Below are positions 1,058 to 29,575 of a DNA stretch of 32,000 nt, in pieces. The first letter of the stretch is position 1. Every line of letters starts with the position of its first letter. Origin of the DNA: Deinococcus sp. LM3 (GTDB lineage: Bacteria; Deinococcota; Deinococci; Deinococcales; Deinococcaceae). The stretch covers positions 75,437-107,436 of the forward strand of contig NZ_MUFV01000005.1 in assembly GCF_002017875.1 (NCBI RefSeq). Direction: 5' to 3'. Below the pieces are notes generated by a model. It worked only from the letters and a program-made list of their open reading frames with translations. It did not search any database and had not been told where the DNA came from. The translations under genes and the position numbers were made by a program.

Positions 1058-1123
1058 GGGTCTGACTCCTCATGGCGCGCGGGAGGCCTCACAGGGACCT
1101 CCCGCGTACCTCGTTGACGGTGG

Positions 1124-2109: not shown

Positions 2110-2163
2110 CAGACAAGCGTTGCAGCCGCTATTGGTCACAGACACACAGCGAACCGGTCAGGA

Positions 2164-5771: not shown

Positions 5772-5802
5772 ATTCGCTGTTCGCGATTCGCGAACAGCGA
5801 AT
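5772..5802. promoter_or_regulatory. 31-bp perfect palindrome (15+1+15), candidate operator of the TA-like pair
   Basis: attcgctgttcgcga t tcgcgaacagcgaat, ending 11 nt before the ATG at 5814. Confidence 0.55.
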
Positions 5803-5813
5803 ATACTGAGACC

Positions 5814-8858: not shown

Positions 8859-9827
8859 GTGAAGTATTTTTGCGGCTACACCCCATGGGACTTCCCAATC
8901 GCGCAACTTGACCCCTACGCTCACATGCTCGTCTCGCCGACCACCTATTCGCCAACGTACAGGTACGACTTCCACCCGCCACAGGAGGTCATGCTCGATA
9001 GTGGCGCCTTCCATCACGGTCGGCGTAACACGCATCGTCACCGCCTGCGCACCTTGCATGATCAACTCAAAATTGCCGAACAGTACCCAGGGAGCACGGT
9101 CACTCTTGCCCACAGTGATGTGCTCTTGCGGCCAGAGGTTGATCCACGCCGGAGTATTCATGAAACCCTCGTGAATGCCGAGTGGTTCATGCGGCAGGAC
9201 CTGCCGAGTGGGTACCGACGAATGACTGTCGCTCAAGCACGCACTCCTGACGAGATGTACCTCGTGGTTTCTCAACTGGCTCAATTTGAGCCTGAATTGA
9301 TCGGTATAGGTGGTCTCGCGAATCTCCACCGTACCCACCGCAAACTCCTTCCATTTATGCTCGAAGGAGCGGTGGAGGCCGCCGGCGACCTTCCCCTCCA
9401 CGCACTCGGCGTCACTGCACAGCACATTCTCCAACGGCTACGCATCAACAACATCTACAGTTGCGACTCTGCCACTGCCATCTGGTGCGCCATCTATGGC
9501 AGCGTTGTCTATGCCCGTCCATACCGCCGTTACCGTCTGATCAGCGAGAAATCCAGCAGGCCCGAATCTCCACAGGAAACAGGCTACTACAGCAGTCTGA
9601 CTCGCCCTCTCGCCTGCACATGTCCAGTGTGCCGAACAGTTCCAGAAGAGTTACTAGGCAGTGACTCGCGCGCTAAATACGCCCGTTACATTCACAACTA
9701 CTATCACATCAAGCTTGAGATCGAGGGAGAGGGAGAATGGCAGGCAGTTTACTCATCGGCCGAATACCAGTCCGTTATGACGACCTTTCTCTCCTCCAGG
9801 AGCTCATCGAACAGCACCCAGGCATAA
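8859..9827 (+). CDS. TGT-fold (DpdA-like) transglycosylase, paralog 1
   Basis: GTG start with an AGGAGG SD 5 nt upstream. Motifs MLDSGAFHHG, IGIGGLANL, LHALGVT and YSCDSATA correspond to the two catalytic Asp regions of tRNA-guanine transglycosylases. A Zn-type CTCPVCR...HNYYH motif is also present. The last 91 nt overlap the next gene in another frame. Confidence 0.7.
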   Translation: MKYFCGYTPWDFPIAQLDPYAHMLVSPTTYSPTYRYDFHPPQEVMLDSGAFHHGRRNTHRHRLRTLHDQLKIAEQYPGSTVTLAHSDVLLRPEVDPRRSIHETLVNAEWFMRQDLPSGYRRMTVAQARTPDEMYLVVSQLAQFEPELIGIGGLANLHRTHRKLLPFMLEGAVEAAGDLPLHALGVTAQHILQRLRINNIYSCDSATAIWCAIYGSVVYARPYRRYRLISEKSSRPESPQETGYYSSLTRPLACTCPVCRTVPEELLGSDSRAKYARYIHNYYHIKLEIEGEGEWQAVYSSAEYQSVMTTFLSSRSSSNSTQA

Positions 9828-10525
9828 CGTTTAAAGCACTCAAGGAGACTTTAACGCCACACTGGACGTACTACCTGTCAAGCTCGGCCAGTCTGCTCAA
9901 AGAAACCCTGAGCTTTGGCACAACACTGGGCCTCTTCGCTTCAAGCGCTGAACGGTCATGGGATGACCGCACCTTCAGCACTCCCTATGAATCGAAGCAT
10001 CTTCGTGCCACGATTCTTCATCTCCTGTCCGCGCAATCAGACACCTCCCAGCGGGCCTTTCGTGGAGTTCATGACGAATTGATCGACCAGGGGCATGTCC
10101 ACACGGATATTTCCAGCATCCTCGAATGCATGGAGACTGGGCCCTATGGTCAGGTCTTCCGCTGGAACGATACGAAAGTCAACTTCTGGAGTCAGTTCAT
10201 GCACGACCTGGGTCTGGTCATCCGGCTTCCACCGGAACGGGTGGTCCTGAGTCCGACCAGCTCTCTCCTTCAAGAACTGCTGCCTGCACAGGGCGGCCCC
10301 GTTCGCCCGTTGTTGGAAACGTGGCACCGCGATTATTACGCCGTCTTCACGCGTCTAGGCGAGGTTCACGAAGGACTTGCACGGGCTCTCCTGCGACTGG
10401 AACAACAAGGACACATGACATTCACGTACGCGAGTGACGCCGTCGGCAGTGTGCTGTTATGCGGCCGTCGCATCAGTCACTGGACTCACGCCGCCGCCGG
10501 AGGCACCCATGTGGATTCCCTTTGA
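9737..10525 (+). CDS. Hypothetical protein (262 aa)
   Basis: ATG at 9737 preceded by a purine-rich SD (gagggagagggaga). No motif recognised. Lies in an operon between the TGT-like gene and the P-loop gene. Confidence 0.6.
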   Translation: MAGSLLIGRIPVRYDDLSLLQELIEQHPGITFKALKETLTPHWTYYLSSSASLLKETLSFGTTLGLFASSAERSWDDRTFSTPYESKHLRATILHLLSAQSDTSQRAFRGVHDELIDQGHVHTDISSILECMETGPYGQVFRWNDTKVNFWSQFMHDLGLVIRLPPERVVLSPTSSLLQELLPAQGGPVRPLLETWHRDYYAVFTRLGEVHEGLARALLRLEQQGHMTFTYASDAVGSVLLCGRRISHWTHAAAGGTHVDSL

Positions 10526-13418
10526 TCCTGCCGACGTTGCTCAGGTCTTCACCACCGAATCCCGTCAGAAGCACGAGCGAATCTTCACGCTAACACACAC
10601 AAGCATGAACCGAATTCTCGTCTCGCACAACCGCGTCGGTCTTTCCAATGGCCAGTTTGTCGGTGAGCATGCAGTACTCGATCTGATTCAACAGTCTGCT
10701 CCGCTGGATAGCAATCGCGTCTGGTTCATCGTGGGAGAAACAGGCAGTGGCAAGTCTGAACTCTGCCAGTGGTTGGAGTACCAGTTGCGTGAACGGCACC
10801 TACCCCTGCACATCTCCAGGCGGCAAGCAAATCTCACCGGCATTCTCGATGTGCTGCACACCCATTTACCGTCCGGCCTTCAGGGGCAGACGACTGACCT
10901 GCCGCAGGACGTGTTGACGGATCACCTTCGCCTGCACCTCATGCTACGCGCCCACCGGGAAGGCCGCGGCCTGGGGTACGTCGAGCAGTTGCTGCCCTTT
11001 CTCCCTGACCTCGCCCGGCGGCTCTATCAACCGCTGGCTTCGTTTGAATTGCCACCCCACCTGCCTCCTGCACCCGCAGATGTTCCTTTCACGGCCTGGT
11101 TGTTCAGCGCCGTTCGCGAAGTCTTGGGTCTCCAGTCACTCGAACCCACCCTGCGTGCACTGGCCGAACATACCGCCCAACTCGGGAAACGTCCGGTCCT
11201 TTTGCTGGAAGACATCACCACTCTCGGCTTCTTACGTGACGATCTCCTCGACTACATTTTTGATCTCTCCGCTCCAGGGTTCGACGCGGTCATCGGGCTG
11301 ACCAGCGGTTTTGAAGATACCCACCTTCACCGCGACGGAGACCTTTCAGAGATGGCGTATGTCCGTGACCGTCTCAGTGCCCGGTTCCAGTTATCGCACA
11401 AGAGTGGAGAAACGTTTTTCCTGAACCAACCTCAAGATCTCCATGATCTGGTCCGGCGCTACCTGGGCTGTCTGCCGGCTCAGTCGGGCGGATCTTCGCC
11501 CGCGTTTTCAGGCCTGTACCCGTTTTCACCCACCATGCTCGACCGTCTATACACACATCTGGTCGAAAGTGGTAACCCGCGTCAAACGCCACGGAATCTA
11601 CTCGACGCTGTTATCAAACCTTCCCTGTGTCTGAATGAACCACCCCACGTCACTCTGTTCCGGGCACACCCTTATTTGCGCACGCCCAGCGTTACCTTTT
11701 ACCATCAAGACATTCCACCGGAACTCCAAGGACTGCTGTACTGGCATGGTGAGGTCCGGGACGGAAGTGTTCACGTTCCGGACGATGTGGCGCAGGCATT
11801 CGGTTATGATTCTGTTCCTCCGGTTCCCTGTTTTCCCAATCCCACAGGATCAACGTGGCTCTTCGGAAAGACGGCGGATGATCCAACAGATCTGTGGAAA
11901 GAAGCCATCCGTGAACTGCAAGCCTGGCAATCTGCGGGTGCTCCCTTTCCCAAACGCCAGTATCTCAAGCGCGGGATTGAACGACTTCTCCGGGCCCTGC
12001 TGGATCCGCGCCCTATCCAGCATCCCCGTCTGAATGCGCTCAGCGCAGATCCTTTAGAGTACACGCGCGGAGGCGATCACCTCCCTATTTACTTACCCGA
12101 GAGCGGTGACGTGCGTCCTGAGCATTGGCCGAGCCTGCACTTCCCCCGCACTCTTCCGCCCCAACTGCTTGAAGAATGCCTCACCTATGCGTTCTCCGCC
12201 AATCGCCATGTAGAATGCTTTGCCGATCTGGGACATACGCGACAGGTTCTCGAAGATGTTGTCTCCGATTTCCGGAGTGACGTGCGCGATCAGATCGGAC
12301 GTCTCACCGGACAATCATGGTCGAGGATGGTCTTTGGTCTCTGGTGGCTCTGTCAACATGTCTGCCAGGGCCATCCCCTGCAGATGAACGGCGGGGATGG
12401 CAAACGCGCCCTTTTGCAGTATGATCTCGCCCCAAAAGAACTGCGAACGGCCTGGTCGGATGAGCGTCGCCACCGCGTGTTACACCGCACTCACCAGGAA
12501 CTTCGGGCGAATCGTGATCACTACCGGGGCTTATTTGTGAGCCTCTTCCATCACAGAGACGACCTGATGGACCCCGTGCTCTATGAACAGGAGTGCCGAC
12601 AGTTCGATCCCAGTCTGTTCATGGATACCCTGGCCACGCTTTCACTCTCACGCCTCTCGGCGGCGCCCTACCGGCAACGGGGCAGTAAGCTCTCGTTGAC
12701 GCAACTCCTCCAACCCGCCGTGGAATACGCCGCAGCCCTCAAGGCATACGTCCTTCAAGACGAAGACCGTCTCCAGTGGACGGCCGTGGAACGCAGCCTT
12801 GAACACGCCATTCAACAGGCAGATGAATTGGACCTAGCCTGCAGACGTATTGAGCGTCTGGCTCATCAGGCCGGATGGACCATCACTGCCCCGCCGACCA
12901 GTCACACGTGGCGGTCCGGCGAGTGGGCAGGTGTCCTGCGTCAGTCCCAGCAGGCCAGTCGCGACTTCAAGAACCATCCTCCGATTGTGCAGATCACGGT
13001 GGCGCGCACGTGGCGGGAACGCCTGGAACAAATAGAACCGATCCAGTGGATGAACGCTGTTAAGGTGTTCCGAGACAGCGCTGAACGCATTCACCAGGAG
13101 AGGCACCCCGTTGAACAACTGCCCACACGACAGACGCATCATTCGAGTGACGTTCACCTGAATGATCTGGAAGATCTCGCCAGTACGCTGGCGGCGGCCG
13201 CGGACGCCGCCGACACCTTGCCACAGCATGTTGCCGAGCAGACGGCCCGTTCGATCCGTCGCCTGCAGGCGACGCAGACTCAGAGCATTGAAGCCGTCCT
13301 GGGCCGTCATGGCATTCACGCACCCGTGCAGATGGCGCGGCAGTCACGGGAGGCCAGTCTGGTTCTTCTGAGTGACCTGCTGGAATGCATGGTGGACCTC
13401 ATGGACTGCCCACCGTGA
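10509..13418 (+). CDS. Large P-loop NTPase (about 970 aa) of unknown family
   Basis: ATG at 10509 with a GGAGG SD 5 nt upstream (the track ORF starts earlier, at 10434). Walker A is WFIVGETGSGKSELC and Walker B-like is PVLLLEDITTLG. It has a long helical C-terminal region. It overlaps the upstream gene by 17 nt. Confidence 0.7.
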   Translation: MWIPFDPADVAQVFTTESRQKHERIFTLTHTSMNRILVSHNRVGLSNGQFVGEHAVLDLIQQSAPLDSNRVWFIVGETGSGKSELCQWLEYQLRERHLPLHISRRQANLTGILDVLHTHLPSGLQGQTTDLPQDVLTDHLRLHLMLRAHREGRGLGYVEQLLPFLPDLARRLYQPLASFELPPHLPPAPADVPFTAWLFSAVREVLGLQSLEPTLRALAEHTAQLGKRPVLLLEDITTLGFLRDDLLDYIFDLSAPGFDAVIGLTSGFEDTHLHRDGDLSEMAYVRDRLSARFQLSHKSGETFFLNQPQDLHDLVRRYLGCLPAQSGGSSPAFSGLYPFSPTMLDRLYTHLVESGNPRQTPRNLLDAVIKPSLCLNEPPHVTLFRAHPYLRTPSVTFYHQDIPPELQGLLYWHGEVRDGSVHVPDDVAQAFGYDSVPPVPCFPNPTGSTWLFGKTADDPTDLWKEAIRELQAWQSAGAPFPKRQYLKRGIERLLRALLDPRPIQHPRLNALSADPLEYTRGGDHLPIYLPESGDVRPEHWPSLHFPRTLPPQLLEECLTYAFSANRHVECFADLGHTRQVLEDVVSDFRSDVRDQIGRLTGQSWSRMVFGLWWLCQHVCQGHPLQMNGGDGKRALLQYDLAPKELRTAWSDERRHRVLHRTHQELRANRDHYRGLFVSLFHHRDDLMDPVLYEQECRQFDPSLFMDTLATLSLSRLSAAPYRQRGSKLSLTQLLQPAVEYAAALKAYVLQDEDRLQWTAVERSLEHAIQQADELDLACRRIERLAHQAGWTITAPPTSHTWRSGEWAGVLRQSQQASRDFKNHPPIVQITVARTWRERLEQIEPIQWMNAVKVFRDSAERIHQERHPVEQLPTRQTHHSSDVHLNDLEDLASTLAAAADAADTLPQHVAEQTARSIRRLQATQTQSIEAVLGRHGIHAPVQMARQSREASLVLLSDLLECMVDLMDCPP

Positions 13419-13559: not shown

Positions 13560-15545
13560 TTAATTCAGGAGGCGTTCCATGGGCCGCTCCAGGTTGTCCC
13601 GTCGTTCCCGGGCAGCCTCATAGCGGTCTCGTTTAACGAGGAGGCTTTCATCGCCGGCAAGGATACGGGCCTGCACGTCCTGGAGTGCCCGGAGGTACAT
13701 GTTGATGTTATGAACGGCGCGGCCCATGTTCGCTTCGTTGCCACCGTTGTAGGGACGGCCACTCGGGTCGCGTAATGTTCCACCCTGTGCCCGGGTGTCC
13801 CACCCTTCGGCGCGCATGGCAGAGCACGCAGGACAGTGGCAGGGCGGTAACTCATCGCTTCCAGGAACGTTCTCAACAATCCGGTACTTTTTGAGGAGGT
13901 TGGGGTCTTCCGGGACGTACTGAAGGAAGGATCCGGCCGTGAAGGCAGACATATACATGCTGGAACCGTCAAAGGAGTCAACACCCAGATGTGTGAGCGT
14001 GGCAGCCCATTTGATACTGGAAACCCCCAGGACGTGAATATACAGATCCGGCACCTGGGCCCGGTACTGTAAGGCGTCTTCAACGCACCGGTAAACAAAG
14101 TACGGATCACGACTTGATTTCAGGGCGAGACTGCCCAGGGCGATGTGCCGGTACCCGAGATCCAGGTAATGCTCCATCATTTCGTGCCGTTGCTCGAAGG
14201 ACCCGTGGGTGACGGCCATGAGACGGTGCGCACCGGCGAGGGGCTTCATGGCTCTTGCGAACTGATAGGAGATTTCAATTTTTTCGCGCGCAACCTGCGG
14301 ACTGTCGAGACCGTCAAGGATCATCATATCCGGGGAGACGATAATGTCACGTCCTTCCCGGGCCCCTGCATCCTCAAACAGTTTCATGGTGCCCTCTGGC
14401 GTCAGGGGTCCGTTGCGTTTTTTCAGGATGGGGTATGGCTCTGCCTTGTAACTCCAGGCGCCGCAATCGTAGATATTGCCCTCATCAGTTTGTGGCAAGG
14501 GATCACTGTTAGGGTTGTGATACGCCAGAGAGGTCAAGTACCCCCTGGGATCCGTTTCAATAAAGTTCCAGATGCGTTCCATCTTGGGGGTTGGCAACGG
14601 CGCCCCTGCGTGATCCTGTGTCAGTTTGAGCTTGTCACGGTTGTTAATCACCACTGTGAATCGTGCCCGCGGAGGCACCGCGAGTTCATGCTGGGCTTTC
14701 GGGTAAAACGCTTCACTGCTCAAGTTCAGAGGGTTGAAGCCCAGTCCGGTGCGGTGAATGCTGGGACCTGTGGTGACCGGCATGGGAGGCACTGAAGCTT
14801 CTACCTCAGCCTCTGACATGAGCGTTGGTGCCGTGCGGGCCGCCTGCCAGGTTTCCAGATAGGTGATGGCGCTCTGAGGATCGGCGTGCCAATCGTGCAG
14901 CACTTCTGGATGTTCTGCGACGGCCCGCGCGAGTTGATGAAACAAGAAGCCTTTCAGGCCAACCATACCGTATCCGAAGCGACGTGCATCCTTATTGACC
15001 AGAGGGAGAACAGCCTGCTTGGCGGCATGCTCGGGAAGAATGGCGGCACTCCCGCCACTGGCCAGAAAAATGAAGCTTTGATCTGGACGACTCTGCAGTG
15101 GGAGAAGGGCCGACTTCAGATAATTCTCGCCGAGCAGGAAAATGACAATATCATAAGACTTTATTCTTGCATTCAGGGCCTCGTGGATGCCCAGCTGCTT
15201 ACTCCAGTCTAAGACTTCCCGGCTTTTTAATTCGTTGAAAGACGTTTCGTAGGGGGCAATAAATTTATACTGATCGATTAAGCCATAACCGGCTGAGATG
15301 ATTTCCAGCCGACTGACAACACCTTTGATCTTCGAGAGAATATCAAAAGCTCGGGAGACCTGTTGGTGCTGCGCACCCGTGTATAAGCGCTTGGCTGAAG
15401 TTCGGTACTCCGCCAACTCTTGCTCACGAGCCCGAAGGTGATCTCCTCCCTTGCGGAAATCCTCTATCACAAGTTGATTTGGCGGTTTGTATAGCTTTGC
15501 GCCCGTACAAGAACTGATGACTAACAAGCTTGGGTACTTGGGCAT
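13560..15545 (-). CDS. Fusion protein: N-terminal YaaA/DUF328- or DUF6884-like domain plus C-terminal TGT-fold (DpdA-like) domain, paralog 2
   Basis: 661 aa. The N-terminal pattern is VISSCTGAKL...AKRLYTGAQH...IISAGYGLIDQYKFIAPYETSF. The C-terminal motifs are IYDCGAWS, IALGSLALK, IHVLGVSS, GVDSFDGSSMY and CHCPACS...HNINMY. The ATG at 15545 lies 2 nt after the queC stop (15548). Confidence 0.7.
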   Translation of the reverse strand: MPKYPSLLVISSCTGAKLYKPPNQLVIEDFRKGGDHLRAREQELAEYRTSAKRLYTGAQHQQVSRAFDILSKIKGVVSRLEIISAGYGLIDQYKFIAPYETSFNELKSREVLDWSKQLGIHEALNARIKSYDIVIFLLGENYLKSALLPLQSRPDQSFIFLASGGSAAILPEHAAKQAVLPLVNKDARRFGYGMVGLKGFLFHQLARAVAEHPEVLHDWHADPQSAITYLETWQAARTAPTLMSEAEVEASVPPMPVTTGPSIHRTGLGFNPLNLSSEAFYPKAQHELAVPPRARFTVVINNRDKLKLTQDHAGAPLPTPKMERIWNFIETDPRGYLTSLAYHNPNSDPLPQTDEGNIYDCGAWSYKAEPYPILKKRNGPLTPEGTMKLFEDAGAREGRDIIVSPDMMILDGLDSPQVAREKIEISYQFARAMKPLAGAHRLMAVTHGSFEQRHEMMEHYLDLGYRHIALGSLALKSSRDPYFVYRCVEDALQYRAQVPDLYIHVLGVSSIKWAATLTHLGVDSFDGSSMYMSAFTAGSFLQYVPEDPNLLKKYRIVENVPGSDELPPCHCPACSAMRAEGWDTRAQGGTLRDPSGRPYNGGNEANMGRAVHNINMYLRALQDVQARILAGDESLLVKRDRYEAARERRDNLERPMERLLN

Positions 15546-15547
15546 AC

Positions 15548-16252
15548 TTACTCTTGTATACCGTCCTGCGCCTGGGCGTAGCGGGTGGCGAGGTCCGGGC
15601 GGCCCGCCTCGATCAGCGCCTTATCGCGGATGCGGCATGAATCGCACACCCCGCACGGCTCCTCGCCCCCCTGGTAGCAACTCCAGGTCACGTCGATCGG
15701 CACGCCCACCGCCAGCGCCTCGCGCACGATGTCCGCCTTCGTCATCTCCGCCAGCGGCGCTGTCAGTACCGCCCCGCGCCCCTCCAGGCCCGCCTTCGTC
15801 GCCAGGTCCGCCAGCGTCTGGTACGCCGAGAGATACTCCGGCCGGCAGTCCGGGTACCCGCTGTAATCCACCGCGTTGATCCCCAGGAACACCCGCTCCG
15901 CGTCGATCGCCTCGGCCAGACTCAGACCCACGGCAATAAAGACCGTGTTGCGCCCCGGCACGTACGTCGGCGGAATCACGCCGTCCTCCGTCCCGTCCGT
16001 CGGCACGGCCATCGACTCGTCCGTCAGGGCACTCCCCCCGAACGACCCGATATTGATGTCGATCACCCGGTGCACGGCTCCGAAGTGCGCCGCGACCGTC
16101 GCTGCCCGCTCCAGTTCCACCGTGTGCCGCTGCCCGTACCGGAACGACAACGCCGTACACGCATACCCGTCCCGCGTCGCCATGCCCAGCACCGTGCTCG
16201 AATCCAGCCCGCCCGACAGCAGCACCACTGCCCTCTTATTCTGATTTGTCAT
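15548..16252 (-). CDS. queC: 7-cyano-7-deazaguanine (preQ0) synthase QueC
   Basis: [14 protein letters not shown]-loop motif, YGQRH, and a C-terminal Zn cluster [18 protein letters not shown]. Confidence 0.95.
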
Positions 16253-16377: not shown

Positions 16378-17070
16378 TCAGTACCCAAGTTCCGCGTTCC
16401 CACCGAGGGGGATGAGGCGCTTGTCACTGTGCGCGTCGAGGTCGTCGGCGCGGTACAGCTTGTGCATCTGGTACCCGGCCCGCAGGCGCGGGTTCTCCTT
16501 CACCGCCTGCGTGATGCCGTTCAGCACAGTCAGATCCCGCTCGCGGGCCCGGCTCCACTCCGGGTGCAGCCAGATCACCGCCCCGTCCGGCAGGCCGGTC
16601 AGGGTGTCCAGGCCCGCCTGAATATCACCGGGTTCGTGGACGATGATCTTCACCTCGTCCGCGAGTACCACGACTTCCGGCAGCGGGGGCTGCCCGAACG
16701 GTTTGGGCGACAGCGTCACCCAGTCCAGTTCACCCCGCAGCGGTGCGATCCCGCTCGTCTCGATGTGCACCCGGCGGCCCAGCGCGTGCAGGGCGTCCGT
16801 CAGGGGCGCGAGGTCGAACAGGATCGGCTCGCCCCCCGTGACCACCACCACCGCGCCCTCTGGACTCTCGGCCCGCACCACATCGGCCAGTTCATCGGCA
16901 CTCATGAGGGTCACGCCGTCCGGGCGGTAGTCGCGGTGCCACGTGCCGGCACTGTCGCACCAGGGGCAGGCCTGCGGGCAGCCGTACAGGCGGATGAAGT
17001 ACGCCGCGCGGCCCAGGTGAACCCCCTCGCCCTGCCAGGTGTAGAACCGCTCGTACACCGGGTACTTCAT
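16378..17070 (-). CDS. queE: 7-carboxy-7-deazaguanine synthase QueE (radical SAM)
   Basis: N-terminus YERFYTWQGEGVHLGRAAYFIRLYGCPQACPWCDS (CX14CX2C-type cluster motif). Typical QueE length (230 aa). Confidence 0.9.
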   Translation of the reverse strand: MKYPVYERFYTWQGEGVHLGRAAYFIRLYGCPQACPWCDSAGTWHRDYRPDGVTLMSADELADVVRAESPEGAVVVVTGGEPILFDLAPLTDALHALGRRVHIETSGIAPLRGELDWVTLSPKPFGQPPLPEVVVLADEVKIIVHEPGDIQAGLDTLTGLPDGAVIWLHPEWSRARERDLTVLNGITQAVKENPRLRAGYQMHKLYRADDLDAHSDKRLIPLGGNAELGY

Positions 17071-17211: not shown

Positions 17212-17622
17212 TCACTCCCAGTACTCGCAGGAGCTGTCGGGTGTCTCCCAGAGCGTCACGTGCAGGCGCAGGTCTGCGCCGTCGTCCCCGTCGGGCAGGT
17301 CGGCGCGCACGCGCTTCATGGTGTGGCGGTGAATGTACGCGGCGACGACCTCGGCGGTCGTGTCGTCCCCGAGTTCCGGGATGTCGTTCAGGTATGCGTG
17401 GTCCAGGCCGCCGGCGTCCACGTCCTTCTTCGCCCATTTGAGGGTCTTGAAGTCCGCGACCATGATGGCCCGCTTGACGTGCGCACTCGGGCGGAGTTTC
17501 TCACTGGTGAGTTCCAGCCGGACGCGGTACGTGTGCCCGTGCAGTCTCCCGCACGGCCCGTCGTAGCCGGTGATCACATGTGCCGAATCGAACGTGAACT
17601 CCGAACTCAGTTTCCAAGGCAT
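17212..17622 (-). CDS. queD: 6-carboxy-5,6,7,8-tetrahydropterin synthase QueD
   Basis: FTFDSAHVITGYDGPCGRLHGHTYRVRLEL, a PTPS-family His/Cys motif. 136 aa. Its start shares 1 nt with the yhhQ stop (TGATG). Confidence 0.9.
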   Translation of the reverse strand: MPWKLSSEFTFDSAHVITGYDGPCGRLHGHTYRVRLELTSEKLRPSAHVKRAIMVADFKTLKWAKKDVDAGGLDHAYLNDIPELGDDTTAEVVAAYIHRHTMKRVRADLPDGDDGADLRLHVTLWETPDSSCEYWE

Positions 17623-18257
17623 CAGCGGACTCCTGCGGGTGCGGTGGTGAGGGCGGGCTCCTGCGGCTCACTGACCTGGGTTCGCACCCAGCGAACCAGG
17701 GGAATAAGCAGAAGGCTGATCAGCATCTTCAGGATGATCTGCCCGAGCATCAGGTTCAGCAGGGGCGCGCCGGTCCCGGCAAAGGCCAGCGTGATGAACA
17801 CGATGGTATCCAGGGTGGTGCTCACGGCGTTCGACGCGATGACCTGCACGGTGACCCCACGGTGACGCAGACGCTCGAAGATCAGGGCGTCGAGGGCCGT
17901 GCTGATCAGGTACGCGGCCAGGCTCGCCAGGACCACGCGGACCGTGGAACCGAAGACCACCTGATAGGCGTCGTCCTGGAAGAATCCGGGTTTCGGAAGG
18001 GCATTGACGAGTAGACCGTAGGCGGCGAGCAGCGCGTTGGCGGCGAAACCGCCCCACAGGACCGCCTTGGCGGCCGTCCAGCCCCCCGCGGTGTGGATGG
18101 CGTCCCTAAGGGTGAAGGTCAGGGAGTACAGGAAGATCGCGCCGGGAAAGACCAGGGAGCCGAGCTGCACGAGGCGACCGGCGGTGACGTTACTGACGAG
18201 TTCCGCGCCGATGTAGACGGAGATCAGGATGGTCAGCAGGGTGGTGCGTTGAGTCAT
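17622..18257 (-). CDS. yhhQ: Queuosine-precursor transporter (YhhQ/DUF165, VUT family)
   Basis: 211-aa polytopic membrane protein. The pattern FPGAIFLYSLTFTLRDAIH is typical of YhhQ-type preQ0/preQ1 importers. Confidence 0.8.
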   Translation of the reverse strand: MTQRTTLLTILISVYIGAELVSNVTAGRLVQLGSLVFPGAIFLYSLTFTLRDAIHTAGGWTAAKAVLWGGFAANALLAAYGLLVNALPKPGFFQDDAYQVVFGSTVRVVLASLAAYLISTALDALIFERLRHRGVTVQVIASNAVSTTLDTIVFITLAFAGTGAPLLNLMLGQIILKMLISLLLIPLVRWVRTQVSEPQEPALTTAPAGVR

Positions 18258-18779: not shown

Positions 18780-19673
18780 TCACCGCTGCAAGGTGCGGGT
18801 GGTGAGCGTGCTGAAGCGGGCAGTGGGGAGTGGGAGGGACGCGCCGATGGCCGCCGCGAGGTTGCACAGGGCCAGGTGAACGCGTTCGTGCGGGGTGAGG
18901 TGGGCGTGCCGGACCTGCGGGGCCGAGTAGAGACGGCCGTCCGCGGCGTACTTCACGTAGGAACTGGAATCCACGCTGTCCACGCCGAGCCGCGAGACCC
19001 GCCCGACGTGGTCCGGGTGGCCGATCCCGAAGGCGTGGATGGGCAGGTCACCAGCTGCGGCGCGGACAGCCCGGATCACGTCGTCCACCATGTCTGGTTG
19101 GGACATGCGTAGGACGAGCCCCCCGATGGCGACTCCTTCGAATCCAGCCTCCCGGTACTCCTGCGCGAGCTCCGCGGCGGCCTGCGCGTCCCAGCCCTGC
19201 ACGACCCCGTACAGGGGCAGGTCGGTGCGGCGGCGGTTGTGCAGGGCCCACAGCGCGTTGGCGCGCGTCAGGGCGTGATAGCGCCGGGCGTCGCGGGTGG
19301 GCAGACCGGGGGGAATGAGCAGGTCCAGGGTGAAGCCGACGTCCGCGACGCGTTCCTGCAGTTCCAGGACGCTGCTGGGTGTTATGCGCCGACCCTGGCA
19401 GTCGATCACGCCGAGTCCCGCGCGGGTGCGGGTCACGGTGGCGGCCGTGAAGACACTGGCGAACCCGCCGGAGTCCACGAGCAACGGCACGCTCAGGTCC
19501 GGCGCTTCCCGCGCGTCTTGCAGGAAGAACGCGCTGACCATGACCGCGGGTGCGAGCCGGGGCAGGTAGGGGCGGATCAGGTCGTCGAGGGGGTACTTCT
19601 CGCCGAAGGTCGTGACGGGCACGAACGCGGGGAAGTGCAGGGGGCCTTTGCGAGTGTTCAGGGTGCGGGTCAT
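18780..19673 (-). CDS. dpdA: TGT-fold DNA/RNA transglycosylase, DpdA-like, paralog 3 (no Zn cysteine cluster)
   Basis: 297 aa. Motifs LLVDSGGFASV, GVAIGGLV, IHAFGIGHPD and GVDSVDSSSY. It contains only two Cys residues, so there is no CxCxxC motif. It heads the que/yhhQ gene string. Confidence 0.65.
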   Translation of the reverse strand: MTRTLNTRKGPLHFPAFVPVTTFGEKYPLDDLIRPYLPRLAPAVMVSAFFLQDAREAPDLSVPLLVDSGGFASVFTAATVTRTRAGLGVIDCQGRRITPSSVLELQERVADVGFTLDLLIPPGLPTRDARRYHALTRANALWALHNRRRTDLPLYGVVQGWDAQAAAELAQEYREAGFEGVAIGGLVLRMSQPDMVDDVIRAVRAAAGDLPIHAFGIGHPDHVGRVSRLGVDSVDSSSYVKYAADGRLYSAPQVRHAHLTPHERVHLALCNLAAAIGASLPLPTARFSTLTTRTLQR

Positions 19674-20743: not shown

Positions 20744-21334
20744 TTAGACAGGTGGATGTAAAAGTCGCCGGGCCCGATCCATGGCTTGAACCAAAGGGTC
20801 TTGGTCACCGTGGCGCCGAAGCCACGGACCGGTTGGTCCGTGCGCGCCTTTCAATGCCTGAAGCCACAGAGTGCCGAGATAGTGCACAAGGACATGATCC
20901 AGATCCTCTGAAGGCGGTGCGGCGCTTATGAGCGAAGCAGATAGGCCTGAAGACTGATCCACCGGAGGCATAAATTCTTGCTCTGCGTCGTGCAGTAGAG
21001 TAAGACCTTGGTCTACAGCAGTTCCACGTTTCTCTGGAACTTCACCATGAGGCGGCAAGTGCACTTCCTGGACCCCCTGGGCGCTACGGTCTTCATACAG
21101 TCGGCTCAGCAGTTTGAGCGCGTCACGCACATCTACAGGTTTGGTACTGCACTGCACCACGGTCCAGGGCCCCAGTTGCCGTTCCTCAACTCCCGCCGCC
21201 AAGACGAAGGTCAGGCCCAGAGTGACTTCAGGGTAGGCCACAGGCAACGTCCCCACGTCGGCGTGTGTGAAGTTGTACTCCGCTTCAGGCAGGGAGGCCA
21301 TCTGCAACCGGCCAGCAAGTTCAAGAGCGTTCAT
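20744..21334 (-). CDS. Hypothetical protein (196 aa), last gene of the defence-like operon
   Basis: Its ATG overlaps the stop of the upstream helicase gene (ATGA at 21331-21334). No motif recognised. Its stop abuts the IS-remnant repeat. Confidence 0.55.
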   Translation of the reverse strand: MNALELAGRLQMASLPEAEYNFTHADVGTLPVAYPEVTLGLTFVLAAGVEERQLGPWTVVQCSTKPVDVRDALKLLSRLYEDRSAQGVQEVHLPPHGEVPEKRGTAVDQGLTLLHDAEQEFMPPVDQSSGLSASLISAAPPSEDLDHVLVHYLGTLWLQALKGAHGPTGPWLRRHGDQDPLVQAMDRARRLLHPPV

Positions 21335-23394
21335 AGCCCTTCCCGGATATCAACGCCACTGAGTTCTCGTAGTAACGGGGTCGCCTGTCCCTCTGTAGCG
21401 AGGAGGTACAACAACTCACCGCTACGGGTCATACCAACGTAGAAACGCATCCGCTCGCGTTCCATGAGAATGTCTTGCTCCTCACGCTCAGTTTCCGACC
21501 CCAAGGCGCCAAGGTGCTCAGCGTCTAAACCAACCAGCATGACCACAGGAAATTCCAAGCCTTTAGCAGTATGAATCGTCATCACTTTGACGCTTTCGCG
21601 CAGAACGTCCAGATCCTCCAGGACTGGATCCCAGTGGTCAGTGGGGATACCTTGCTTGGACAGGGCGTACGCGTATTCTTGGGCGAGCCCTTCCGTAGTG
21701 GCGATCACAGCAATATCACGCAAGCGTAAGAGGTTTTCTTCGCGAAATCGCGTGATTTCCTCAATGACGAAGCGTTTGATCTGGTGCTCCTCAACGAAGC
21801 GCATTAATATGGGACGTGGGCCACTGCGCTTAACTGACGCCATATCTATTAACTCACCGTGTTCCTTGAGATGCACATTTCGGGAGGCCAGATCAGCGGC
21901 GGTACGCACCACTTCGCGGGTATTGCGGTAATTGATTTTCAGCGCATACGAACGCCCCCGGACATCGAGGCCTACCTGCTTCCATGAAAACCCACGCGAG
22001 TACAAGCTCTGCGCGGCGTCTCCTAACACCAGGACGGTTTTGTGCTCAGTGCCTTGGCCCCGTGTGAGACGCTGCAACACCCGCAGTTCCAAGGGCGTGA
22101 GATCTTGCGCCTCGTCAACAATGACGTCGTCTACCACTTCGAGTTCGGGATGGTCAAGCAGGAGGCGGTACAGGCGGGTGACCGCGTCCCCCCAGTCCAT
22201 CAGGCCGCGTGCCTGCAAGTGAGCGTTGTAGGCACTTAGTACTTCCCAGACCACAGCGCGGGACAGTGGACTGAGTGCCTGCTTGCGCCCGTACCGAGGC
22301 GCTTGACGGTAAGCATCCATGTCCGGAAGCCCGAAGCCTTTTATCACTCGCTGAATTTCAGCGTAGAAGAACTCTGGAGCGCGCGCGAGCACCGCGGAGT
22401 GCCGCTGAGTTCTCACCTCATTGATCGCCTGCCGAATGAACTGCAGCGCCTGGTCGCGGTCCACGAGAGGCTGCTGGACTCCTGCCGCGTCCAGCATGCG
22501 CAGAGCCCATTGCCGGTAATCCTCAATGCGGAGGGTGGCTGGCAAGGTACCAGTCACTTCTTGCACCAGACTTCGGGTGACGCGTTGCAGTACGGGATTG
22601 TAAGTAATGAACAGTACCTGCCGTCCTGCCTGTGCGAGCCGGACAGCGCGGTGAATGCCTACGGTCGTCTTTCCACTGCCGGCCACACCTTTAAGCAGTG
22701 TGGCTCCAGTATGAATTCGGTTCACATGCTGTAGTTGCTCCTCGGCGAGCTCCAATAGAAGGTCCTGGATGCTGCCACGGGTGTACGCCTCCAGTTGCTC
22801 CAAAGACGCACGTTTGAATACACGGAAGGGATCCGCTAGGGGCTCGGCCGGGTCCGTCGCGAGCGCCAGAATCCACTCTTGGGTTTGTGCGGGCAGTCCG
22901 GGAAGTTTCAGGGCATCATCCAGGGTAGGCGCATCACGTAATGCGCGGGCTAATAGCGCGGGCGCTCCCAACAGCCGCAATTGATGCACAGTAAAGGCGC
23001 GCAGGGGAAAATCCGCGTCGCTTGGAGGATGGTTCCATGTGGTGGGCACCTGGAAGTCTGCCGTTTGTGGTGTGGCTGTGGCCTGCGGTTCAAGTTCCCA
23101 ACTCAGAAGGTCCTGGGTTCCAATATCCCGGGCGGTCAGTCGGTCGAAAACACTGTGAGGCACCACCCGCAGCAGCATGGGTTCACGGTTGCGTCCCCAC
23201 TGGAAGAGCATGCGCCAGTTGTCATTCACCCGGCAATACCAGGCGTCCATCAATTCCAGGCGGCGCACCTGCAGGCCGGTGGCCTGCGGATGCGTCAGAA
23301 GGGTTTTCACCGTACTGATGATGGCCGGCTGCATCGGCAACGCCGCGTTATGTTTCAGATCATCCAGGAAACGGGGGCTCACAAGCATCGTCAT
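21331..23394 (-). CDS. UvrD/Rep-type SF1 helicase with an N-terminal RelE/ParE-like domain
   Basis: Helicase motifs LLKGVAGSGKTTVG (I), VIVDEAQDL (II), KINYRNTREV, MTIHTAKGLEFPVVML and FYVGMTRSGELLYL. The first ~85 aa (...LELMDAWYCRVNDNWRMLFQWGRNREPMLLRVVPHSVF) follow the RelE/ParE toxin-fold pattern. Confidence 0.8.
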   Translation of the reverse strand: MTMLVSPRFLDDLKHNAALPMQPAIISTVKTLLTHPQATGLQVRRLELMDAWYCRVNDNWRMLFQWGRNREPMLLRVVPHSVFDRLTARDIGTQDLLSWELEPQATATPQTADFQVPTTWNHPPSDADFPLRAFTVHQLRLLGAPALLARALRDAPTLDDALKLPGLPAQTQEWILALATDPAEPLADPFRVFKRASLEQLEAYTRGSIQDLLLELAEEQLQHVNRIHTGATLLKGVAGSGKTTVGIHRAVRLAQAGRQVLFITYNPVLQRVTRSLVQEVTGTLPATLRIEDYRQWALRMLDAAGVQQPLVDRDQALQFIRQAINEVRTQRHSAVLARAPEFFYAEIQRVIKGFGLPDMDAYRQAPRYGRKQALSPLSRAVVWEVLSAYNAHLQARGLMDWGDAVTRLYRLLLDHPELEVVDDVIVDEAQDLTPLELRVLQRLTRGQGTEHKTVLVLGDAAQSLYSRGFSWKQVGLDVRGRSYALKINYRNTREVVRTAADLASRNVHLKEHGELIDMASVKRSGPRPILMRFVEEHQIKRFVIEEITRFREENLLRLRDIAVIATTEGLAQEYAYALSKQGIPTDHWDPVLEDLDVLRESVKVMTIHTAKGLEFPVVMLVGLDAEHLGALGSETEREEQDILMERERMRFYVGMTRSGELLYLLATEGQATPLLRELSGVDIREGL

Positions 23395-23404
23395 GATTTG
23401 ACCT

Positions 23405-24205
23405 CTACCGGTAGAAACCTGCTAGGGCATCCAGCAGGGGTTTGAATGCCGCTTCGTTGGCAACAGTCGGGTGATTGGCCAGGGCGAAGAAGTCGGCACT
23501 AGGTAAGGTGCGTTTCTTCGGAACCATGTCGCGATCCGTGAGGTCATACTGGTTACGTCGCCAACTGTGGGCCAGGAATTCTTCGGCCGCTGCTCTAAGC
23601 CCATCAAGAGGCTCATCGCTGCGTACCTCCGCGACCAACTCTGCGTTGTAGGCGAGGCCGCCGTTCGTGAAATTGGCACTGCCGAATAAAGCCCCCGACG
23701 GCAACCAAAGCAACTTGGCGTGTAGGGCGTCCCGGTACGACACCTGCGCGCCAAGTTGCGCCAGTTCCTCTGCGAACAGCACGGTGTCCGCGTGATTCAG
23801 AAATTCGCGTTTCAGCTCTGTACTGCGTTCCCTCAGGCCGCGCAGCACTTCATCCTGCAGGTCGAAGTCCATATCCTCGTTCGCCTGCACGCGCCGCACC
23901 TGCTCCGCCGTGAGTTGGTACTCCGCCAGGGCAGGTAAGGTCACCAGTTCATGCGGAGGTTTCACAATCACATGAATCAAGTGCTTCTGACCAAGCAGGC
24001 GCAGCAGGTCTTTCAGGGTGACGCTCTCCCGGTGTGTCCCGAAGACACTCCGGTACGGGCCCAACGACCGAATGTCGAACTCGACGTTTTTCAGCCACGG
24101 CGTAATCAGCCACACGTCACTCGGCGCGCAATCAAGCGCTTCAAGCATCAGGCGCACCATCTGGTTCTTCAGGCGGTCGGTCCGATCGGTTGCGTGGAAA
24201 ATCAC
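23405..24205 (-). CDS. PLD-superfamily (single HKD) nuclease, DrmC/DpdK/Nuc-like
   Basis: LHAKLLWLPSGALFGSANFTNGGL is an HxK...GSxN motif, and there is only one copy. 266 aa. The GTG start overlaps the upstream stop (GTGA at 24202-24205). Confidence 0.75.
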   Translation of the reverse strand: MIFHATDRTDRLKNQMVRLMLEALDCAPSDVWLITPWLKNVEFDIRSLGPYRSVFGTHRESVTLKDLLRLLGQKHLIHVIVKPPHELVTLPALAEYQLTAEQVRRVQANEDMDFDLQDEVLRGLRERSTELKREFLNHADTVLFAEELAQLGAQVSYRDALHAKLLWLPSGALFGSANFTNGGLAYNAELVAEVRSDEPLDGLRAAAEEFLAHSWRRNQYDLTDRDMVPKKRTLPSADFFALANHPTVANEAAFKPLLDALAGFYR

Positions 24206-27200
24206 AGCGCTTCCTGCCGGTACAACACAGTGCGCAAGGTTAGGTGCTCCGGATCAAACACGCGTCCCTGCTGCTGCAGCCCAGCCCTTGCAAAGGCGCG
24301 CACCAGTTGGTCACTGAGGTGGCCCTGATGCTCGTGCAGGACGAACCCTCCATGAGTGTCGGCCAGACGAACGACCTCCGCCACATCCAGATCCTCACCG
24401 CGAACGGTGATGGGCGCGGTCAGCACCTCGTGAGCGCGTTTAAGCAGCGTCCGCGACACGTTGTGGCGGGTTACGTCGATGTGGCCTTGGTCGCAGGACC
24501 CTGCCAAGCAAGCCGGGCAGGCATCCACGCAGGTAGACAGCGACCAACTTTCCACCTGGGCAAGGAAGCGGTCGTCGGCCGTCATCTCCTCCTCGCCCTC
24601 CTCTTCAACCAACACCTGTTGGAAATGCGTGCGGTACACCTGCAAGAGCCGCTTCAGGTGAGGTAGGTTCCGGTCCTCTTTCAAAAGGGTCAGGGCGTAC
24701 CCGGCGAGTTCCTGCGGCAAAGGCGTCCGGTGGAACCGGGCACTGAGCTCCGACTCCAGATCCAGCAGTTCCAGCAGCACATCGAGGTGCGCAAAGCGTT
24801 CCCCATTTACGTGCACCTCAGAGGTCAGCACGGTCGCCAGGTGCATCAGTTCAGGACTGTCGTCCCGCAACAGGCCGTCTGTCGCTTGAACCAGTGCGCG
24901 GCGCAGTCCGTCATCTTTCCGTTCGTGCGCGGGCAAGGCCAGCAACACCTGCACCTCGTGCGCAATGGGGGTGCGACGATTCGGTGCGAGCACTGCTTTA
25001 ACGAACTGCTGCTCTTCCGCCACGGGGCACTCGAGGGTATAGCGCCACCAAGCGGTGACGTGATGGCCTGTGCGCTCGCCTGCGGGATGTTCACCCATGA
25101 CCCGCGCGGCTGCGCGGGTGCTGCCCGCGCCATCCTGATTTCGCTCGTACACGTAGAACGCATGGTCCTGAGGGTCGTGTCCATGCGTGATATGCAACTG
25201 TGTGCCGGAGCCAATCTGGTGATGGTCGGCGCTGCCCTGCATCATAAACATGTTCCGTACCGCGTGCTTCAGCGAGTGAACGAGCGTGTCACGGACGTAC
25301 GCACTGACCTGCGCTTTGTTCTGAATGCGGGCGAACAACCGCCGCAGTTTCTCGTACGCCCGGTCGTCTTGCCACGTGACCCTGGCCTGCTCCAGGAAGT
25401 CCGGGTGGAGCGTGCGGTGGTCTGCCCAGTACCGCTGCGCGCCCCGCACCAGTGTCTGCCACCCGTCAGGATCCCGCAGAGCTGCTAGGAATTCCGGCCC
25501 GCTTTGCCCCTGCGCCCGTGCTTCTGCACGCATGGTGCACAACACGTCCGCCATCCGGCGTTGCGTGAAGGTGTTCAAGCCGTCTTCGACGCCTTCTGCC
25601 CACGGCTCACTTTTAAGGAGGTAGCGCAAGAACTGGTCCTGCAAATGCACTTGCGTGCGGACGTCGGCCCACTGCTGCTGCGCGATTGCCTGCACCGCCT
25701 GACTGAGTACCTGCGGATCGTACGGCACGCGAAGCCCTTCGGTGCATAAGTCGTACCCGTACAGTAGCGGCTCGCCGTCATGCTCACTCACGTACCGCAC
25801 CAGGTTGTGACCCCGGCCCGCCTGCGGGTCTTCACCTTGAGGGTGGCGTTTGTGTAACACAATCGTCGCTTCCGCCCCGTACTGCACTTCCCATGCAGCC
25901 AAACGCGAGCGCTGCCCGTCCTGCTCGCCGTAGTAATACTCCAGTGGTTGCACCAGGCTGCCGAACAAGGGCGGCACCGGGACGCGCAACCTCGCCTCAC
26001 CTAACGGGTGCACGGCCGAGAAAGACAACGGATAACTGTTGCTGTCAGGGGACACCACCCGCCATCCGTCCTCGAGCAGGGCTTGTTGAGCCTGTGCGGT
26101 AGCCTCTTCCCTCAACTGCCTCAACTCCACACTGCCGTCCGGACGTTTCCGGCCGTACGCCTGGGCCCCTTGCACTGGTGATTTGGGGTTGTTGGGGTCG
26201 AGCCGGCCAAATGACCACAACTCCAGATACCGCAGGCGGTAAAACCGCTTTGGCATCTCCCCATACAGGCGACGCACGCCAAGGGGCATGTACTGCTCGA
26301 AGGCGTCTCCCAGGCCACTGGCGGTTGGAAGGTCTTTGATCAGGGCCGGCTTGAATGGTCCATATCCTCCCCCTTCCCGTTTCTTATATCGCTCCATCGC
26401 CATGGCGTTTTGTACGATCACACCGTTGACCCGTACGGTCGGGGACCGCCAGTGCAGCAGGTGCGACGTGCCGTACCGCCTGGTGACGCGCCCAGCACCA
26501 AATTCGCTGAATGTGAGGGCAACGTCCTCCTTGACAAAGTTCCAGTCCATATCTGCCCTTGGCGGAGGCACCATCACCTGCACGACCGGCAGGTTGACAC
26601 TGCTGAACAGGTTCTCCGGGATGTCCGGGCACAGTTGCAGCAGACTTACTGGCCGGGTTCGAGTGGGCCGGTCTGCCCGGTGACGCACCTCCGGATCCAG
26701 CAGGGTCGCCTGGAACCACTCCCACAACGCTTGCCACGTACGGTACCCCTCCTGCTGCCGTAAGGTCGCTGCAATTACCCGTTCGTATCCATTCGTGATG
26801 AAGGGGTAGCGGGCGTCCAGGCGGGTCAACTCGCCAAAAATGGCGTCCAGGTGGTTCTGCAGCGGTGTGCCGACTGGCAGGGCATACCAGAGCCGGCCCG
26901 TCCGCTGGGTCAGTTCATCAAAGAGCAGGGCCACCGCATGGAAACGCTGAATAAAGTCATTCTCCGGATTCAGCGCTGGTTCGTAATCGGCCGGATCGGT
27001 GAGGGCTTCAGGATTTTGGAAGTAAAATGCGTCGCGGTAACTGCTGCGACTGAGCGTCACGGCTGTAATCGGCCGGTCGCTCAGATCCCGGCCTGCCCGG
27101 CCCTTTTTCTGAACAAACGAAGCGATGTTACTCGGGGCATGATGCTGCATGACGAACTGGATACTGGGGTCGTCATAACCTACCTCCAGACTGGTTGTGG

Positions 27201-29538: not shown

Positions 29539-29575
29539 CAGCGAAAGAAATGAGTGAGAACGGCAGCTTCGCGGT

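Follow-up and report, generated by a model that had tools for sequence, protein, structure and literature searches.

A predicted DpdC-DpdA fusion protein encoded directly after queC in Deinococcus sp. LM3

A DUF6884 domain joined to a DpdA-like transglycosylase

The 32,000-nucleotide stretch of Deinococcus sp. LM3 DNA analyzed here (the window; contig NZ_MUFV01000005.1, positions 75,437 to 107,436) carries a 661-residue open reading frame (ORF) in which a domain resembling DpdC precedes a tRNA-guanine transglycosylase (TGT) domain resembling DpdA. We read this protein as a natural fusion of the two enzymes that serve as "writers" in a 7-deazaguanine DNA modification system of the Dpd type, and from the comparisons described below we put the probability of that reading at roughly 0.65. 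It would probably act as a bifunctional enzyme, inserting 2'-deoxy-7-cyano-7-deazaguanosine (dPreQ0) and converting it to dADG (2'-deoxy-7-amido-7-deazaguanosine). The gene follows queC, which encodes the synthase of 7-cyano-7-deazaguanine (preQ0), with almost no gap. As had been predicted from the sequence alone (the original prediction), the fusion starts 2 nt after queC, the TAA stop of queC being followed by the spacer GT and then by the ATG of the fusion.

The N-terminal domain belongs to DUF6884. The Pfam family (PF21818) matches residues 46 to 153 with 39.2 bits against a gathering cutoff of 30, and both motifs of the family, CxxxK and LSAxxG, are present as C13-T-G-A-K17 and I-S84-A-G-Y-G88. 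DUF6884 is described by Pfam's authors as a YaaA-related family with these same two motifs (PMC11701544). When modeled alone with AlphaFold2, the domain reached a predicted local distance difference test score (pLDDT) of 95.5, and a Foldseek search with this model returned YaaA (5CAJ) as the top Protein Data Bank (PDB) match and the sole one below E = 1e-3 (E = 1.2e-4, template modeling score 0.43). The kinship with YaaA holds at the level of the fold only: the domain scores 16 bits against the cutoff of 29.6 for the Pfam YaaA/DUF328 family (PF03883), and its profile found no meaningful match among PDB sequences, YaaA surfacing in the fold search alone. A scan against NCBIfam gave a marginal YaaA match (E = 0.015), which is uninformative since that collection, in which no model matches DpdC, misses the canonical protein too. 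Pfam and the fold search together place the domain within the DUF6884/YaaA fold, as predicted, and not in an unrelated family.

The statement in the original prediction that DpdC belongs to a family of this kind is likewise borne out. In the literature, DpdC has been termed DUF328-like (PMC5699537) and DUF6884 (bioRxiv 10.1101/2025.02.24.639861). Our canonical reference is encoded on an Enterobacter plasmid together with a DpdA that shares 92% identity with the Salmonella enzyme. The reference scores 528 bits as PADLOC DpdC and has DUF6884 as its sole Pfam match (23.2 bits), canonical DpdC being a divergent DUF6884 relative. Aligned to the profile of the fusion N-terminal domains, the reference gives an hhalign probability of 93.8% (E = 1.7e-7), and the PADLOC DpdC models match the window protein at residues 7 to 110 (E = 5e-7 to 2e-5). 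The residues that are invariant between canonical DpdC and four fusion proteins include C13, T14, K17, Y55, G57, H60, S84-A85-G86, G88, P98, Y99, F103, and W114. Those from C13 to F103 show no variation among the fusions either. With this domain fused directly upstream of the DpdA-like domain, the dpdC slot next to dpdA is occupied.

The Enterobacter cloacae plasmid NZ_CP086409.1 (L087) also offers an observation on annotation. The RefSeq "hypothetical protein" upstream of dpdA starts at 5076, whereas a longer ORF from a GTG at 4971 (4971-5927) encodes the full-length DpdC that gives the 528-bit PADLOC score; the annotated start at 5076 cuts off the CxxxK motif of DpdC.

The C-terminal half was predicted to have a TGT fold with a CHCPAC zinc motif, and the evidence agrees. 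The TGT family (Pfam PF01702) matches residues 381 to 576 with 33.6 bits (gathering cutoff, 26.3), the PADLOC DpdA model matches residues 358 to 538, and DpdA (7UI4) is the best Foldseek PDB match for the model of the whole protein. A profile of the fusion family aligns to Salmonella DpdA over almost its entire length (E = 4.7e-120). Through alignment A1 we mapped the residues of the window protein onto those of Salmonella enterica serovar Montevideo DpdA, for which functional roles have been defined (PMC10164549). In addition to the equivalences in Table 1, H447-G448 corresponds to H181-G182, G471 to G206, and the zinc site C569/C571/C574/H612 to C368/C370/C373/H395. The only replacement among the catalytic residues falls in the glycine pair (G206-G207 of DpdA), whose second member is a serine here (G471-S472). 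The TGT domain therefore looks catalytically complete and DpdA-like on the basis of its conserved catalytic and zinc residues and the fold match to 7UI4. Its first catalytic motif, YDCGAW, had been regarded as unusual; this does not hold, as S. Montevideo DpdA has MGDCGAF at the same place (D95 to F99).

Integrity of the fusion

An AlphaFold2 model of the 661-residue protein, built with 39 homologues, shows two confidently predicted domains separated by a disordered linker (residues 239-267; mean pLDDT of the model, 82.7). The predicted template modeling score of the whole protein is only 0.56, so we leave the interdomain geometry uninterpreted. Full-length homologues of 633 to 677 residues occur in independent assemblies of Deinococcus aerophilus, D. 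rhizophilus MIMF12, D. sonorensis, D. taeanensis (on a plasmid), and D. hopiensis (a metagenome-assembled genome). The sequence of the linker varies across the fusion homologues, yet it is always in frame (alignment A1). All of the peptides quoted in the original prediction are present in the protein: SSCTGAKL (containing C13-K17), RLYTGAQH (Y55-H60), IISAGYGL...IAPYETSF (S84-F103), YDCGAW (D360-W364), and CHCPAC (C569-C574). A scan of Rfam found neither a preQ1 riboswitch nor any other Rfam family, and a promoter and terminator scan gave nothing decisive.

DpdC-DpdA fusions in other genomes

The original prediction knew of no description of this architecture. It is in fact widespread and already present in databases. 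We obtained 45 clusters with a word-indexed protein search. They belong to Deinococcus species and cyanobacteria; 43 are annotated as DUF6884 plus TGT and the remaining two as DUF6884 only, one of these being a 441-residue protein. A scan of one genome per species yielded at least 241 relatives, including proteins from Deinococcus, Calidithermus, many cyanobacteria, Paenibacillus, Bacillus, Desulfosporosinus, and a single-cell genome of Verrucomicrobia. The cyanobacterial and Calidithermus fusions score 480 to 486 bits on NF041059, the NCBI equivalog model of DpdA, over positions 1 to 405 and above the equivalog cutoff, and RefSeq names the cyanobacterial fusions DpdA ("tRNA-guanine transglycosylase DpdA"). 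A member of the fusion family also appears in the literature: WP_015211588.1, a protein of 698 residues that aligns with the window protein from residue 3 (BLASTP E = 9e-54), is the accession given for DpdA of Microcoleus PCC 7113 (Fig. 3 of PMC5699537). We found no explicit discussion of a DpdC-DpdA fusion in the literature searched, which left out Thiaville et al. 2016 (PNAS) and the 2024 review of de Crécy-Lagard et al. in Microbiology and Molecular Biology Reviews, where a mention is possible.

The canonical gene order is dpdC-dpdA-dpdB, and the fusion therefore simply unites neighboring genes. In cyanobacterial dpd clusters that contain the fusion, DpdB and DpdE-H are present and a separate dpdC is absent. 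The tight linkage between queC and the fusion recurs as well, with queC directly upstream in 15 of 82 related loci. Compact queD-queE-queC-fusion operons occur in cyanobacterial contigs, and in the one that was fully read (L083) the called genes include no TGT paralogue besides the fusion.

Directly downstream of the fusion, 18 of the 21 DpdB-containing cyanobacterial clusters encode a conserved protein of ≈280 to 295 residues (for example, L086 2922-3806 and L080 5770-6606). This protein has no Pfam match on record, and in phmmer it matches the window TGT297 and fusion ORFs marginally (E = 0.03-0.1).

Mosaic ancestry

The two halves of the window protein have different closest relatives. Its N-terminal domain is 38 to 51% identical to the N-terminal domains of the cyanobacterial-type fusions, whereas its TGT domain is only 22 to 30% identical to theirs, and over part of the length. 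Among 1.84 billion representatives, an exhaustive HMMER search recovered no more than 89 relatives of the TGT domain. Next to the Deinococcus fusions in closeness come free-standing proteins of ≈290 to 325 residues, which are 28 to 38% identical over the full length. Several members of this small-TGT family carry a short DUF6884 domain of ≈135 residues (PADLOC PDC-M57A type), N-terminal in P0050 and C-terminal in P0051 and P0063. The family is present in 14 IMG/VR viral contigs (L092-L105), in 10 of which a short DUF6884 gene is fused or adjacent to the small TGT; several of the 14 also encode YhhQ or QueD homologues nearby. The discordant similarities suggest that the Deinococcus protein is a mosaic of a long DpdC-like domain from the bacterial fusion lineage and a DpdA-like domain from the viral-contig lineage, as judged from BLAST and HMMER scores and not from formal phylogenies.

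The TGT domain of the window protein had no match at E <= 1e-3 in a tblastn search of 50,697 cultured-phage records, and nearly all of the listed matches to P0051 in the same records cover its DUF6884 part only, none being full length. Short stand-alone DUF6884 proteins had matches in 151 of these records, 125 of them mycobacteriophages, and the DUF6884 domain probably has functions outside 7-deazaguanine chemistry. As a separate observation, the small DpdA-like proteins of the viral contigs and their short DUF6884 partners may constitute an undescribed phage DpdA/DpdC-like pair.

Gene neighborhood and composition

The features of the window protein and of the surrounding island are collected in Table 1.

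Table 1. Positions of the fusion, its domains and motifs, and neighboring genes in the window
Feature	Position	Strand	Remarks
Whole fusion ORF, DpdC-like plus DpdA-like, 661 aa plus stop, ATG start	13560..15545	-	
N-terminal DUF6884/DpdC-like domain, aa 1-238, YaaA-type fold	14832..15545	-	
CTGAK (C13-K17), CxxxK motif, candidate catalytic Cys/Lys of the DUF6884 domain	15495..15509	-	Invariant in 39 fusion homologues and canonical DpdC
SAGYGL (S84-L89), (L)SAxxG motif of DUF6884	15279..15296	-	
Interdomain linker, aa 239-267, predicted disordered, poorly conserved	14745..14831	-	pLDDT <50; variable columns in alignment A1
C-terminal TGT/DpdA-like domain, aa 268-661, small phage-associated subtype without the Ins8 four-helix bundle	13563..14744	-	
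DCGAW (D360-W364), equivalent to Salmonella DpdA D95 (general acid/base) through F99	14454..14468	-	
D406, equivalent to DpdA D130 (base recognition)	14328..14330	-	
D526, equivalent to DpdA D256 (catalytic nucleophile)	13968..13970	-	
F535, equivalent to DpdA F265 (aromatic residue essential for base exchange)	13941..13943	-	
CHCPAC zinc knuckle (C569, C571, C574)	13824..13841	-	Near-invariant in alignment A1, invariant in alignment A5
H612, fourth zinc ligand	13710..13712	-	
queC (preQ0 synthase)	15548..16252	-	Pfam QueC 237.9 bits; TIGR00364 219.8 bits
queE	16378..17070	-	
queD	17212..17622	-	
yhhQ-type queuosine-precursor transporter	17622..18257	-	
Second TGT paralogue, TGT297, 297 aa, catalytic Asp kept, no zinc motif	18780..19673	-	Pfam TGT 84.6 bits; alignment A4
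Third TGT paralogue, TGT322, 322 aa, catalytic Asp and CTCPVC...H zinc motif kept	8859..9827	+	
DpdG-like protein, weak match	9737..10525	+	
DpdH-like P-loop protein, 994 aa, convergent with the fusion gene	10434..13418	+	
Putative restriction block: UvrD/NERD-type helicase, DpdK-like phospholipase D (PLD) nuclease, DpdJ-like helicase (1778 aa), DpdI-like protein, DpdH C-terminal part	21331..31947	-	

None of the Dpd-like genes of the island reaches its NCBIfam equivalog cutoff (DpdJ 372 against 800, DpdK 48 against 100, DpdI 54 against 150, and DpdH 159 against 450). The ORF at 30277-31947 (minus strand) covers only positions 458 to 1011 of the DpdH model, and the N-terminal half of this DpdH must sit in another frame or past the end of the window; the gene at 10434-13418 is a second, divergent DpdH-like gene of the island. 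No DpdB was found in the 32-kb window with a hidden Markov model built from three DpdB sequences and run with --max on all ORFs of at least 60 residues (best E-value 2.4), and the related Deinococcus and Bacillota loci likewise yielded none. Nor did the window show a DpdD, DpdE, or DpdF.

The three catalytic aspartates are conserved in each of the island's TGT paralogues (the fusion, TGT322, and TGT297). Of 79 fusion loci, 21 have DpdB and 17 have the pair of TGT322 and a DpdH-like gene, and no locus has both (Fisher p = 0.004, not corrected for phylogeny). These 17 loci (L001, L002, L031, L037, L041, L044, L048, L052, L062, L067, L068, L070, L073, L074, and L076-L078) are from Deinococcus and Bacillota; their DpdH-like gene encodes ≈1000 residues, and in the Deinococcus loci a DpdG-like gene lies between the two. 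The TGT322/DpdH-like set may be an alternative helper module.

In composition the island divides in two. GC content at third codon positions (GC3) is 0.85 to 0.89 for queC, queE, queD, yhhQ, and TGT297 and ≈0.62 for the fusion, TGT322, and the DpdG-like and DpdH-like genes, and the break falls exactly at the 2-nt junction of queC and the fusion (15545/15548). In D. hopiensis (L001) this step is less pronounced, and D. rhizophilus (L002) does not show it. This pattern, at the junction and across the Deinococcus relatives, suggests horizontal acquisition, with amelioration further along in some lineages than in others.

Several further observations concern the surroundings. Genes for close homologues of TGT297 (E ≈1e-90) immediately follow that of a DEAD-box helicase carrying an HHH_5 domain, a few kilobases from the fusion, in cyanobacterial loci and in D. 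sonorensis (L003 13751-19394, L008 12730-17774, L081 18497-21696). In the scanned cyanobacterial copy L008, a SWIM domain is present in this first helicase as well, and both L003 and L008 have another DEAD helicase next in order. In the window, a DEAD-box/HHH_5 helicase before TGT297 is absent. At the left end of the window (1-7000), long ORFs at 227-1117, 1124-1771, 1927-2850, 2164-3786, and 3166-3903 have no Pfam match, and GC content falls to 0.51-0.53 around 3000-5000. The island may be plasmid-borne, given a ParA-type ATPase gene at 7376-8047 and the D. taeanensis homologue on a plasmid.

A proposed writer and its alternatives

By homology to the characterized Dpd enzymes, we propose the following route to dADG for both catalytic activities of the fusion. 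QueD, QueE, and QueC, encoded immediately upstream, would make preQ0, with import by YhhQ as an alternative source. The C-terminal TGT domain would then exchange guanine in double-stranded DNA for preQ0 by the double-displacement mechanism of DpdA, with D526 as the nucleophile, D360 as the general acid/base, D406 and H447 reading the base, and F535 stabilizing the flipped site. Salmonella DpdC turns preQ0-DNA into ADG-DNA independently of DpdA and DpdB (PMC10164549), and the tethered DUF6884 domain may similarly hydrate the dPreQ0 nitrile to the amide dADG, probably through the invariant Cys13 and Lys17 of CxxxK, a role that we infer from Cys-dependent nitrile chemistry. The products of the neighboring DpdH/I/J/K-like helicase and nuclease genes would spare DNA that carries the mark. 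Phage 9g DpdA alone inserts dPreQ0 in Escherichia coli (PMC6884629). Because that enzyme acts alone and the TGT domain of the window protein is of the viral-contig type, a lineage without the DpdA helical bundle and without an accompanying DpdB, independence from DpdB is plausible, and we consider the insertion step probably DpdB-independent, by analogy with phage 9g.

Several points weigh against this proposal. The N-terminal domain is remote from canonical DpdC (19% identity), and the PADLOC DpdC matches span only about its first 105 residues. Short DUF6884 proteins are common in cultured phages that lack a TGT match, which means that nitrile hydration cannot be deduced from the fold. The TGT domain scores 43.8 bits on NF041059 against a cutoff of 200, matching only positions 92 to 268 of the 406 in the model. 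It also lacks the Ins8 four-helix bundle (αC-αF), ≈100 alignment columns that are present in the cyanobacterial fusions and in 7UI4; in the AlphaFold2 model, a β-hairpin (residues 539-555) leads to the zinc knuckle (residues 569-574) with no helices between. The structure paper describes Ins8 as conserved in the DpdA family and in contact with DNA (PMC10164549). The island encodes two more apparently active TGT paralogues, either of which might be the writer instead. DpdB, finally, could be encoded outside the window.

Some of these points would fit a protein that is a preQ0 insertase only, in which DUF6884 is a non-catalytic or differently catalytic module for DNA binding and base flipping in a DpdB-type helper role, and the mark is dPreQ0 or another derivative instead of dADG. 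YaaA, the closest solved fold, is described as DNA-binding, and DUF6884 has been proposed to flip a nucleotide into its cleft (PMC11701544); a helper of this kind would suit an island without DpdB, a TGT domain without its DNA-contacting bundle, and the frequency of short DUF6884 proteins in phages with no TGT match. The catalytic-looking CxxxK and SAGxG motifs, however, are invariant and shared with bona fide DpdC. The cyanobacterial fusion clusters, moreover, keep DpdB and have no separate dpdC, which places the N-terminal domain in the DpdC slot and not in the DpdB slot, and the window domain is 38 to 51% identical to those cyanobacterial domains. We therefore consider an insertase without the hydration step unlikely.

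A bolder elaboration of the bifunctional writer, which we offer as a quite unlikely conjecture, is that the Deinococcus and Bacillota islands represent a distinct, DpdB-independent Dpd type whose phage-derived mosaic writer installs dADG alone. TGT322 and TGT297, instead of being redundant writers, would then be readers or effectors that probe for the mark or attack foreign 7-deazaguanine DNA through base exchange or glycosylase activity. This role for the paralogues comes to mind because TGT322 always occurs with DpdG-like and DpdH-like genes and never with DpdB, and because TGT297 is found elsewhere between two helicases.

It is also conceivable, though improbable, that another paralogue writes the mark: TGT322 (with the DpdG-like and DpdH-like proteins) or TGT297 would insert the base, leaving the fusion to work on a different substrate (tRNA or invading DNA, for example) or making it a redundant module of recent acquisition. 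The catalytic aspartates are kept in all three proteins, TGT322 and the DpdH-like gene accompany the fusion across phyla, and TGT297 shares the native high GC3 (≈0.88) of the queCDE-yhhQ block, while the lower value of the fusion, TGT322, and the DpdG-like and DpdH-like genes suggests separate acquisition. Yet it is the fusion that is coupled directly to queC, and this coupling recurs in distant lineages. Among the genes called in L083, the fully read one of the compact cyanobacterial operons, the fusion is the sole TGT paralogue. The fusion also has the DpdA-specific DCGA[FW] motif, the F265 equivalent, and the zinc site, and the AlphaFold2 model predicts no extension of a tRNA-binding kind.

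An artefact, in which separate dpdC and dpdA genes, adjacent and in identical order in canonical systems, had been wrongly merged by a frameshift or assembly error, was envisaged in the original prediction and has a negligible chance of being correct, because a single fusion ORF is conserved in 45 protein clusters and 241 genome loci from several phyla and many independent assemblies, with a variable linker that never leaves the frame and with both domains complete in the AlphaFold2 model.

Significance

The fusion serves as a "Rosetta stone": it is independent evidence for a substrate shared by DUF6884 domains and DNA transglycosylases. The arrangements include a long N-terminal DUF6884 domain on a bacterial DpdA, a long N-terminal domain on a small TGT, and a short N- or C-terminal domain on a small TGT. 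Through them, the pairing of DpdC with DpdA in the Salmonella system is extended to cyanobacteria, Deinococcota, Bacillota, and uncultivated phages. What the original prediction put forward, one polypeptide with DpdC-like and DpdA-like halves tied to queC, stands by homology with respect to the identity of the domains and their coupling; its novelty and its unusual motif do not. The kind of fusion is known, and the distinctive features are its mosaic build, the lack of a DpdB nearby, and the two extra TGT paralogues.

The Deinococcus variant is apparently a bacterial writer without DpdB and without the DNA-contacting bundle of DpdA, and its comparison with Salmonella DpdA and DpdB could explain the canonical enzyme's need for an ATPase. 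What is known of the pathway's chemistry stays unchanged, which makes the advance incremental. Its interest lies in a possible DpdB-independent, single-polypeptide dADG writer and in the repeated fusion of DUF6884 to TGT. If the proposal is true, a single-gene dADG writer, given cellular preQ0, would be a compact tool for placing 7-deazaguanine marks in DNA.

Comparison with known systems

E. coli YaaA (5CAJ; DUF328/PF03883) has the same "cantaloupe" α/β fold as the N-terminal domain of the window protein but is a stand-alone, DNA-binding protein of the peroxide stress response with no link to 7-deazaguanines. Salmonella and Enterobacter DpdC, the amidohydrolase that converts dPreQ0 to dADG, has the CxxxK, Y-x-G..H, SAGxG, and PY..F motifs and W114 in common with that domain and, like it, comes before DpdA, its gene lying directly upstream of dpdA. 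Unlike the fused domain, canonical DpdC is a free-standing protein of 318 residues with another C-terminal half.

For the TGT domain, the S. Montevideo DNA preQ0 insertase DpdA (7UI4) has in common the TIM-barrel TGT fold, the DCGA[FW] motif, the three catalytic aspartates, the H-G pair, the F265 equivalent, and the CxCxxC...H zinc site. The two are ≈16 to 22% identical, and they differ in the N-terminal region of Ins1/Ins2 and in the zinc Cys-to-His spacer, which has 37 residues in the window domain and 21 in DpdA. The window domain is also attached to a DpdC-like domain and lacks a nearby DpdB partner. The DpdA of Enterobacteria phage 9g is a DpdB-free DNA-guanine transglycosylase that yields dPreQ0 in E. 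coli plasmid DNA (PMC6884629), and the window domain may behave in the same way; by sequence it is not close to any deposited DpdA of a cultured phage in the tblastn search described above.

Closer to the window TGT domain are the small DpdA-like proteins of ≈300 residues, for which we found no experimental characterization. They share its NRDxxK, DCGAWSY, APDHM, VxHG, HVLG, DSFDGSS, CxCxxC, and NMGRAxHN motifs, and they too occur in association with DUF6884 and with YhhQ or QueD homologues. Their DUF6884 partner, however, is short and either N-terminal, C-terminal, or separate, whereas the window protein has the long form of 238 residues that is typical of the cyanobacterial fusions.

Those cyanobacterial fusions (WP_015211588.1 of Allocoleopsis/Microcoleus sp. 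PCC 7113, plasmid NC_019762.1; P0028 of Leptolyngbya FACHB-261) differ from the window protein in that their TGT domain is a full-length bacterial DpdA, including the Ins8 bundle (E = 5e-120 against 7UI4), and in that DpdB and DpdE-H are encoded at many of their loci, the former missing from the window. They nevertheless have the same domain order, a similar length (690-700 residues), and N-terminal domains that are 42 to 51% identical to that of the window protein and have all of its motifs, and they too are often preceded by queD, queE, and queC.

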